A DNA stretch of 64,000 nt from Escherichia phage vB_Eco_AL25: sequence record OW991345; one strand, given 5' to 3'. Every line of letters begins with the position of its first letter. Position 1 is the first letter of the stretch. A program made the position numbers and the translations under genes. The notes under the pieces were generated by a model, which saw only the letters and a list, made by a program, of their open reading frames with translations, made no database searches and was not told the origin of the DNA. Positions 42,840 through 42,870 of this stretch are shown piece after piece.

Positions 42840-42870
42840 CAATAAGCTGCTCCGCAGCTTTTGGTAATTA
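42840..42870 (+). promoter_or_regulatory. vRNAP-type hairpin promoter candidate upstream of RNAPII genes (7-bp stem, loop TCC); could also act as terminator
   Basis: AAGCTGC-TCC-GCAGCTT followed by TTGGTAA; same stem length, loop and downstream TTGG as the P2-like hairpin. Confidence 0.5.

Follow-up and report, generated by a model that had tools for sequence, protein, structure and literature searches.

A conserved hairpin upstream of the RNAPII genes of Escherichia phage vB_Eco_AL25 is very probably the N4-type early promoter P3

Promoter recognition that depends on DNA structure has a textbook example in the hairpin promoters of coliphage N4, whose three sites were mapped in the 1980s. Haynes and Rothman-Denes in 1985 and Glucksmann and colleagues in 1992 are said to have described these early hairpin promoters, P3 among them. 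As reviewed by Lenneman and Rothman-Denes, three mapped initiation sites (P1-P3) of the virion-encapsidated, T7-like RNA polymerase (vRNAP, gp50) lie in the leftmost 10% of the N4 genome (PMC4496689). Their conserved part runs from -17 to +1 and includes a GC-rich heptamer, centred at -11, between inverted repeats; on the template strand, -11A/G, -10G, -8G and +1C are specifically recognised by vRNAP, the four A residues that precede the start serve as a ruler whose bases are not contacted, and stem bases outside the contact positions are free to change while pairing is kept (PMC4496689). The steps from gyrase extrusion to GTP initiation have been shown for N4 promoters (PMC4496689, PMC13492108), and gp15 and gp16 count among the early products of vRNAP transcription (PMC4496689). 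The P2 template oligonucleotide used for cryo-EM reads 5'-...CAGCCAAAAGAAGCGGAGCTTCAAC-3' (PMC13492108), and the wording 'P1-P4' for N4 occurs once in the same 2026 paper. In Klebsiella phage KP8 (NC_048700), the site orthologous to the one described here carries the annotation 'early promoter' and appears in print as putative P4, a similarity-based prediction, not a mapped start (PMC6950046). Early hairpin promoters have also been described by ONT-cappable-seq in Pseudomonas phage LUZ7. They recall the present site in having a stem of 4 bp or more, a 3-nt loop of conserved sequence and, downstream of the hairpin, a G at which the injected vRNAP initiates; however, LUZ7 has another consensus, a start 13-14 nt from the hairpin centre and nine early starts versus three in N4 (PMC9163698).

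The DNA analysed here is a stretch of 64,000 nucleotides from vB_Eco_AL25 (OW991345), hereafter the window. Megablast of positions 42300-44000 matched 27 phage records, all of them N4-type coliphages, with 100% identity to vB_Eco_SPSP and 98.6% to N4 (EF056009), in which the counterpart is 4002-5702. The first hairpin of the early region shows the same offset (window = N4 + 38298); N4 position 1 thus corresponds to window 38299 and, judged by its sequence, the window is a permuted copy of a coliphage N4-type (Enquatrovirus) genome. At 38298/38299 the right genome end is joined to the left end, as in a permuted or circularised assembly, and a run of 10 C is present at 38329-38338, about 30 nt inside the left genome end. 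Early promoters are unannotated in the deposited N4 and vB_Eco_SPSP records, the N4-type records that were examined.

The gp14 stop (42826) and the ATG of RNAP1/gp15 (42901) are separated by a gap of 74 nt that is identical to N4 4529-4602. Within this gap, the initial annotation had pointed to an inverted repeat, AAGCTGC-TCC-GCAGCTT, followed by TTGGTAA. We located the repeat, with a perfect 7-bp stem, at 42844-42860 and the TTGGTAA directly 3' of it at 42861-42867; the distance to the gene of the RNAPII small subunit, given there as 30 nt, has to be corrected, as 40 nt separate the end of the hairpin from the ATG (38 nt if counted from the predicted transcription start). The elements of this site and the two related hairpins in the window are as follows.

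42844..42860, + strand: inverted repeat AAGCTGC-TCC-GCAGCTT, promoter positions -19 to -3, perfect 7-bp stem and 3-nt loop
42849..42855, + strand: GC-rich heptamer GCTCCGC, centred at -11 (-14 to -8)
42859..42862, + strand: TTTT spacer (template AAAA), the 'molecular ruler' from hairpin to start, -4 to -1, same as in P2
42863..42864, + strand: predicted transcription start, +1 G and +2 G (template CC), 11 nt 3' of the loop centre at 42852
38388..38400, + strand: P1 hairpin GTTGC-TTC-GCAAC, then TTATGG; same class, with template -11A; predicted +1 G38405
38855..38871, + strand: P2 hairpin AAGAAGC-TCC-GCTTCTT, then TTGG; reverse complement of the published P2 oligonucleotide; predicted +1 G38874

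Comparison with P2, the promoter used in the vRNAP crystal and cryo-EM structures, set the register. The core of the published P2 oligonucleotide, CCAAAAGAAGCGGAGCTTC (PMC13492108), is the reverse complement of window 38858-38876, and therefore the template strand is the minus strand of the window. The template strand of the candidate P3 reads CCAAAAGCTGCGGAGCAGC (in the 3'->5' direction, ...TTCGACGAGGCGTCGAAAACC...) and is identical to CCAAAAGAAGCGGAGCTTC at 15 of 19 positions, the four differences being two compensatory stem pairs (A-T and A-T replaced by C-G and T-A). The 7-bp stem, the template GGA loop, GCGGAGC, AAAA and CC are shared by the two sites. Read on the template strand, 42849-42855 (GCGGAGC) supplies -12A, -11G, -10G, -9C and -8G, as in P2, and the published determinants -11G, -10G, -8G and +1C are all present at the right spacing. 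The template loop GGA has a purine (-11G) at its centre and 5'-G...A-3' at its ends, and the arrangement CC-AAAA-stem places +1C 11 nt from the loop centre, behind the A-rich ruler. Since the loop centre at 42852 corresponds to -11, with the spacing found in the P2 oligonucleotide of PMC13492108, the transcription start is predicted to be G42863 (N4 4565). The likeness in stem length, loop and downstream motif that had been noticed between this repeat and a P2-like hairpin is thus confirmed at 38855-38871, which carries the TTGG tail. In N4 P2, the +1 falls at 38874 and the annotated gp2 ATG at 38884.

Either strand of the repeat can form the perfect 7-bp stem with its 3-nt loop. The DNA fold of the + strand has a free energy of -8.4 kcal/mol (z = -2.5 to -3.7), that of the template (minus) strand for the same 42844-42860 hairpin one of -7.3 kcal/mol. 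The functional hairpin would be the template form, AAGCTGC-GGA-GCAGCTT, and by this measure it is the most stable of the three, the others having -5.3 (P2) and -3.7 kcal/mol; the difference from P2 follows from the two swapped pairs. In the predicted DNA fold of the template strand at 42840-42866, the P3 stem is extended by a bulged CAA/TTG helix, which would pair +1C, -1A and -2A and is not kept in relatives.

We then asked how often such hairpins occur. Members of the class had to have a 3-nt loop reading TYC/RGA, two G-C/C-G closing pairs and a perfectly paired stem of 5 bp or more. Exactly three were found in the 64-kb window (38388-38400, 38855-38871 and 42844-42860), all on the + strand, and three of the four occurrences of the heptamer GCTYCGC in the 64 kb are these hairpins. 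Short hairpins as such are not rare in this DNA: with a 3-nt loop, the window holds 12 hairpins with a 7-bp stem and 17 with at least 7 bp, about 5.4 of the latter kind being expected in shuffles, so a functionless repeat arising by chance had to be considered. However, the expectation for the class in 100 dinucleotide shuffles of the window was 0.09 +/- 0.29 (maximum 1), the three hairpins seen all lie in the early region on the coding strand, and the present site is conserved, with covariation, where RNAP1 is only 65-75% identical. A chance origin is therefore barely conceivable.

The count is the same in N4 itself. The whole N4 genome (70,153 bp) was reassembled and both strands were scanned for the heptamer, a stem and a downstream TGG; there were exactly three matches, at 90-102, 557-573 and 4546-4562, all on the + strand and confined to the first 4.6 kb from the left genome end (the leftmost 6.5%). 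The candidate, at 4546-4562, lies at 6.5% of the 70,153 bp, on the same strand as gp1-gp16. A fourth N4 promoter was sought with a relaxed filter (stem of at least 4 bp, contact bases only), which gave four extra weak matches, at 1274, 27762, 45243 and 47525; these lie in or beside coding sequence and have neither the GC heptamer nor TGG, and were rejected. Three class hairpin promoters are present in PhAPEC7, as in N4, and four each in KP8 and St11Ph5. The extra promoter of the latter two (KP8 contig L006, hairpins at 962-978 and 1226-1240; St11Ph5 contig L008, hairpins at 891-903 and 1159-1175) precedes a small gene that sits between gp1 and the gp2 homologue.

Since three sites have been published and exactly three exist in N4, we identify the candidate with P3. 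It comes from the same genome type, its intergenic sequence is identical to that of N4, and it is the sole remaining N4 site with the published features; a 5-7 bp stem, a 3-nt loop, a heptamer at -11, a place in the leftmost 10% and rightward orientation are all shared with the published description of P3. No difference is detectable at the level of description, which is the level at which the two were compared. The hairpin published for P3 is presumably this same sequence. From the site count and the published description, the site is almost certainly the one named P3, and we consider it very probable that the element is this N4 early promoter, a DNA-hairpin promoter for vRNAP. The proposal of a third early promoter in the initial annotation is thereby upheld: the site has the architecture of P1 and P2, carries all determinants, is one of the three N4 sites and keeps its position in relatives. 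The element is, in other words, already known and intensively studied.

Conservation was examined by collecting RNAP1 loci. A search with a single RNAP1 protein gave three loci and a search with a 7-sequence RNAP1 alignment gave 80 viral contigs. In all 15 viral contigs whose RNAP1 was at least 65% identical (N4, KP8-like, Gamaleyavirus-like and metagenomic relatives), one GCTCCGC hairpin each was found upstream of RNAP1, at a distance of 37-41 nt in 11 and of 273-299 nt in the other four, where a small ORF lies between. None of the 65 metagenomic viral contigs with RNAP1 below 63% identity had the hairpin at this position, and it was not found before RNAP1 in Achromobacter phage Axy10, Erwinia phage Frozen or Pseudomonas phage Zuri. 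The pre-RNAP1 hairpin thus appears to be a trait of the subfamily (Enquatrovirinae) that is not universal in Schitoviridae; the distant phages examined either use other motifs or have no promoter before RNAP1. Among those distant phages, a P1-like hairpin is present about 90 nt from the left end in Zuri (contig L011, 89-101) and Axy10 (contig L009, 80-94), and Zuri has a further hairpin at 736-748. The altered loop of Zuri, GCTGCGC, suggests that recognition of -11/-10 by vRNAP has co-evolved with the loop sequence.

The 13 distinct orthologues showed which parts of the element are held constant. The heptamer, -5C, -4T/-3T and the +1/+2 GG were invariant. All 78 stem cells were paired, and two pairs were changed on both sides (CT/AG, CA/TG, GT/AC). 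The covariation score was 0.303, compared with 0.098 +/- 0.035 in shuffled alignments (0 of 500 shuffles reached it) and at most 0.05 in slid controls. Positions -2/-1 varied (TT, GT, TC, AA, TA), which agrees with the absence of base contacts at the ruler (PMC4496689). The same pattern emerged when 16 promoters of the class from N4, KP8, PhAPEC7, St11Ph5 and two metagenomic contigs were aligned: the inner five pairs were always paired, with up to four pair types per position, compensatory changes occurred at four pairs, the covariation score was 0.506 versus 0.136 in shuffles, and the heptamer and GG did not vary. Fixed contact bases and a stem that is free to change but always paired are what the published biochemistry predicts (PMC4496689). 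These data also bear on whether the palindrome, perfect apart from its loop and intergenic, could be bound by a dimeric protein or serve for the processing of read-through RNA, in either case unrelated to vRNAP. Here the asymmetric TCC loop and the downstream GG are invariant while the symmetric stem varies freely as long as it pairs, which points to a folded hairpin read on one strand and not to a duplex operator, and all contact positions equal those of P2; an operator or processing site is accordingly a highly improbable explanation. A search of Rfam with 42300-43300 (E up to 1) returned only a chance snoRNA match, on the opposite strand. A promoter on the minus strand was also considered and rejected, the asymmetric loop and downstream GG fitting only rightward transcription.

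The putative P4 of KP8 occupies the orthologous position before RNAP1 and shares the heptamer and spacing of the candidate P3. Its stem, AAGCAGC-TCC-GCTGCTT, differs from the candidate by a compensatory pair swap only, whereas the tail is GTGGGG versus TTGGTA here and a small ORF, gp021, lies between promoter and RNAP1. The four relatives with an inserted small ORF have the corresponding stretch at L015 1201-1260, L021 1211-1270, L024 1188-1250 and L027 1214-1275; in these, the predicted +1 GG opens a ribosome-binding site (GGAG/GGAA), with a leader of only about 10 nt, an arrangement to which N4 P2 comes close. A further conserved block, ACGTTAGG(Y)AAT, stands directly 5' of the pre-RNAP1 hairpin at 42831-42843 and is kept in N4, KP8-like and Gamaleyavirus-like contigs, its matching position being found in L015-L028. 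It may belong to the last part of the preceding gene or represent an upstream promoter element. P1 has ACGTTACACGTT 5' of its stem (38378-38389).

Downstream of the hairpin, the predicted transcription unit comprises the following features.

42886..42889, + strand: Shine-Dalgarno GGAG of RNAP1, inside the predicted 38-nt leader
42901..43710, + strand: RNAP1 (gp15, 269 aa), N4 RNAPII small subunit, first gene of the unit
43722..44972, + strand: RNAP2 (gp16), N4 RNAPII large subunit; the ORF as listed has 416 aa
44978..45004, + strand: canonical intrinsic terminator after RNAP2, 12-bp stem plus T-run; -18.3 kcal/mol, 7 T in the 8-nt tail

The 269-aa product matched the PHROG 'N4-like RNA polymerase' (1e-118), and the 416-aa ORF matched PF00940 and a PHROG RNA polymerase family (3e-172). 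Since the latter PHROG match begins at residue 13 and the N4 annotation gives 404 aa, the true start of RNAP2 is probably the ATG at 43758. The unit probably ends at 44978-45004, where vRNAP would stop.

The initial annotation had also offered the hairpin as a vRNAP terminator for the upstream operon, or as both terminator and promoter. Acting at the RNA level, it would terminate or attenuate gp8-gp14 transcripts, instead of or besides serving as a promoter. Transcripts arriving from upstream would include the hairpin, since no canonical terminator separates it from gp14; the RNA folds as a 7-bp stem of -8.1 kcal/mol, and in N4 and Gamaleyavirus contigs TTTTGGT(A/T) comes after the 5-bp GC core, so that 5-6 of 8 nt are T. 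However, a consensus scan of 38000-48000 flagged seven clear intrinsic terminators and not this hairpin. Four of these (38791-38810, 39377-39398, 40820-40845 and 44978-45004) follow gp1, gp2, gp7 and RNAP2, respectively, and three lie further downstream. The RNA stem of this hairpin has -8.1 kcal/mol and, in the 8 nt behind its full length, four T, where an intrinsic terminator would have at least five U; the nearby terminators reach -11.2 to -18.3 kcal/mol and 5-7 T. Orthologue tails contain 0-5 T overall (0-3 T in KP8, L021, L024 and L027) while the promoter determinants are invariant; a tail that varies in T next to an unvarying GG implies selection on promoter features and not on a U-tract. 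P2, which has the same architecture, has a separate canonical terminator about 45 nt upstream of it, which suggests that the phage uses dedicated terminators where it needs them. With its weak RNA stem, short T-tract and a tail whose T residues are not kept in orthologues, the hairpin is improbable as a terminator, and the earlier suggestion is not sustained. For a minor terminating or attenuating effect on gp8-gp14 transcripts we would allow a slight chance. It is likewise unlikely that the hairpin has a second role besides that of P3, whether as a partial terminator, pause site or insulator, or with its stability setting the order or strength of firing during entry.

The candidate P3 and P2 differ in their surroundings: P2 has a canonical terminator upstream and drives gp2, whereas no terminator precedes the candidate, which would drive RNAP1 and RNAP2. 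In the scanned region, no terminator was found between gp8 and the end of RNAP2, and no vRNAP-type promoter before gp3 or gp8; for transcription of gp3-gp14, read-through or AT-rich RNAPII middle promoters are candidates. A consensus scan for sigma-70 promoters found no -35/-10 site near 42840-42900, the nearest on the + strand being at 43199, and sigma-70-like sites in the scanned region numbered 15 versus 32 in shuffles.

If the site works as N4 promoters do, host DNA gyrase would supercoil the entering left genome end and the inverted repeat, 4.5 kb from that end, would extrude as a cruciform. E. coli SSB would melt the non-template arm and spare the template hairpin, 5'-AAGCTGC-GGA-GCAGCTT-3'. 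W129 of vRNAP would then stack on -11G, the specificity loop would read -10G/-9C/-8G, and the intercalating hairpin of the polymerase would melt the two outer pairs of the 7-bp stem. With the four template A residues as ruler, two GTPs would pair with the template CC at G42863. The predicted transcript would begin with a 38-nt leader containing GGAG, continue through RNAP1 (gp15) and RNAP2 (gp16), and probably end at the strong terminator at 44978-45004; gp15 and gp16 would form the heterodimeric RNAPII for middle transcription. Since strong terminators follow gp1, gp2 and gp7, a dedicated promoter would secure early RNAPII without read-through.

Beyond annotation, the finding matters little. 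What it adds for the subfamily is that a dedicated vRNAP promoter before the RNAPII genes would be conserved across Enquatrovirinae, with textbook covariation of its stem, and that early promoters in these phages may be annotated by a simple rule: stem-GCTCCGC-stem, four bases, GG.
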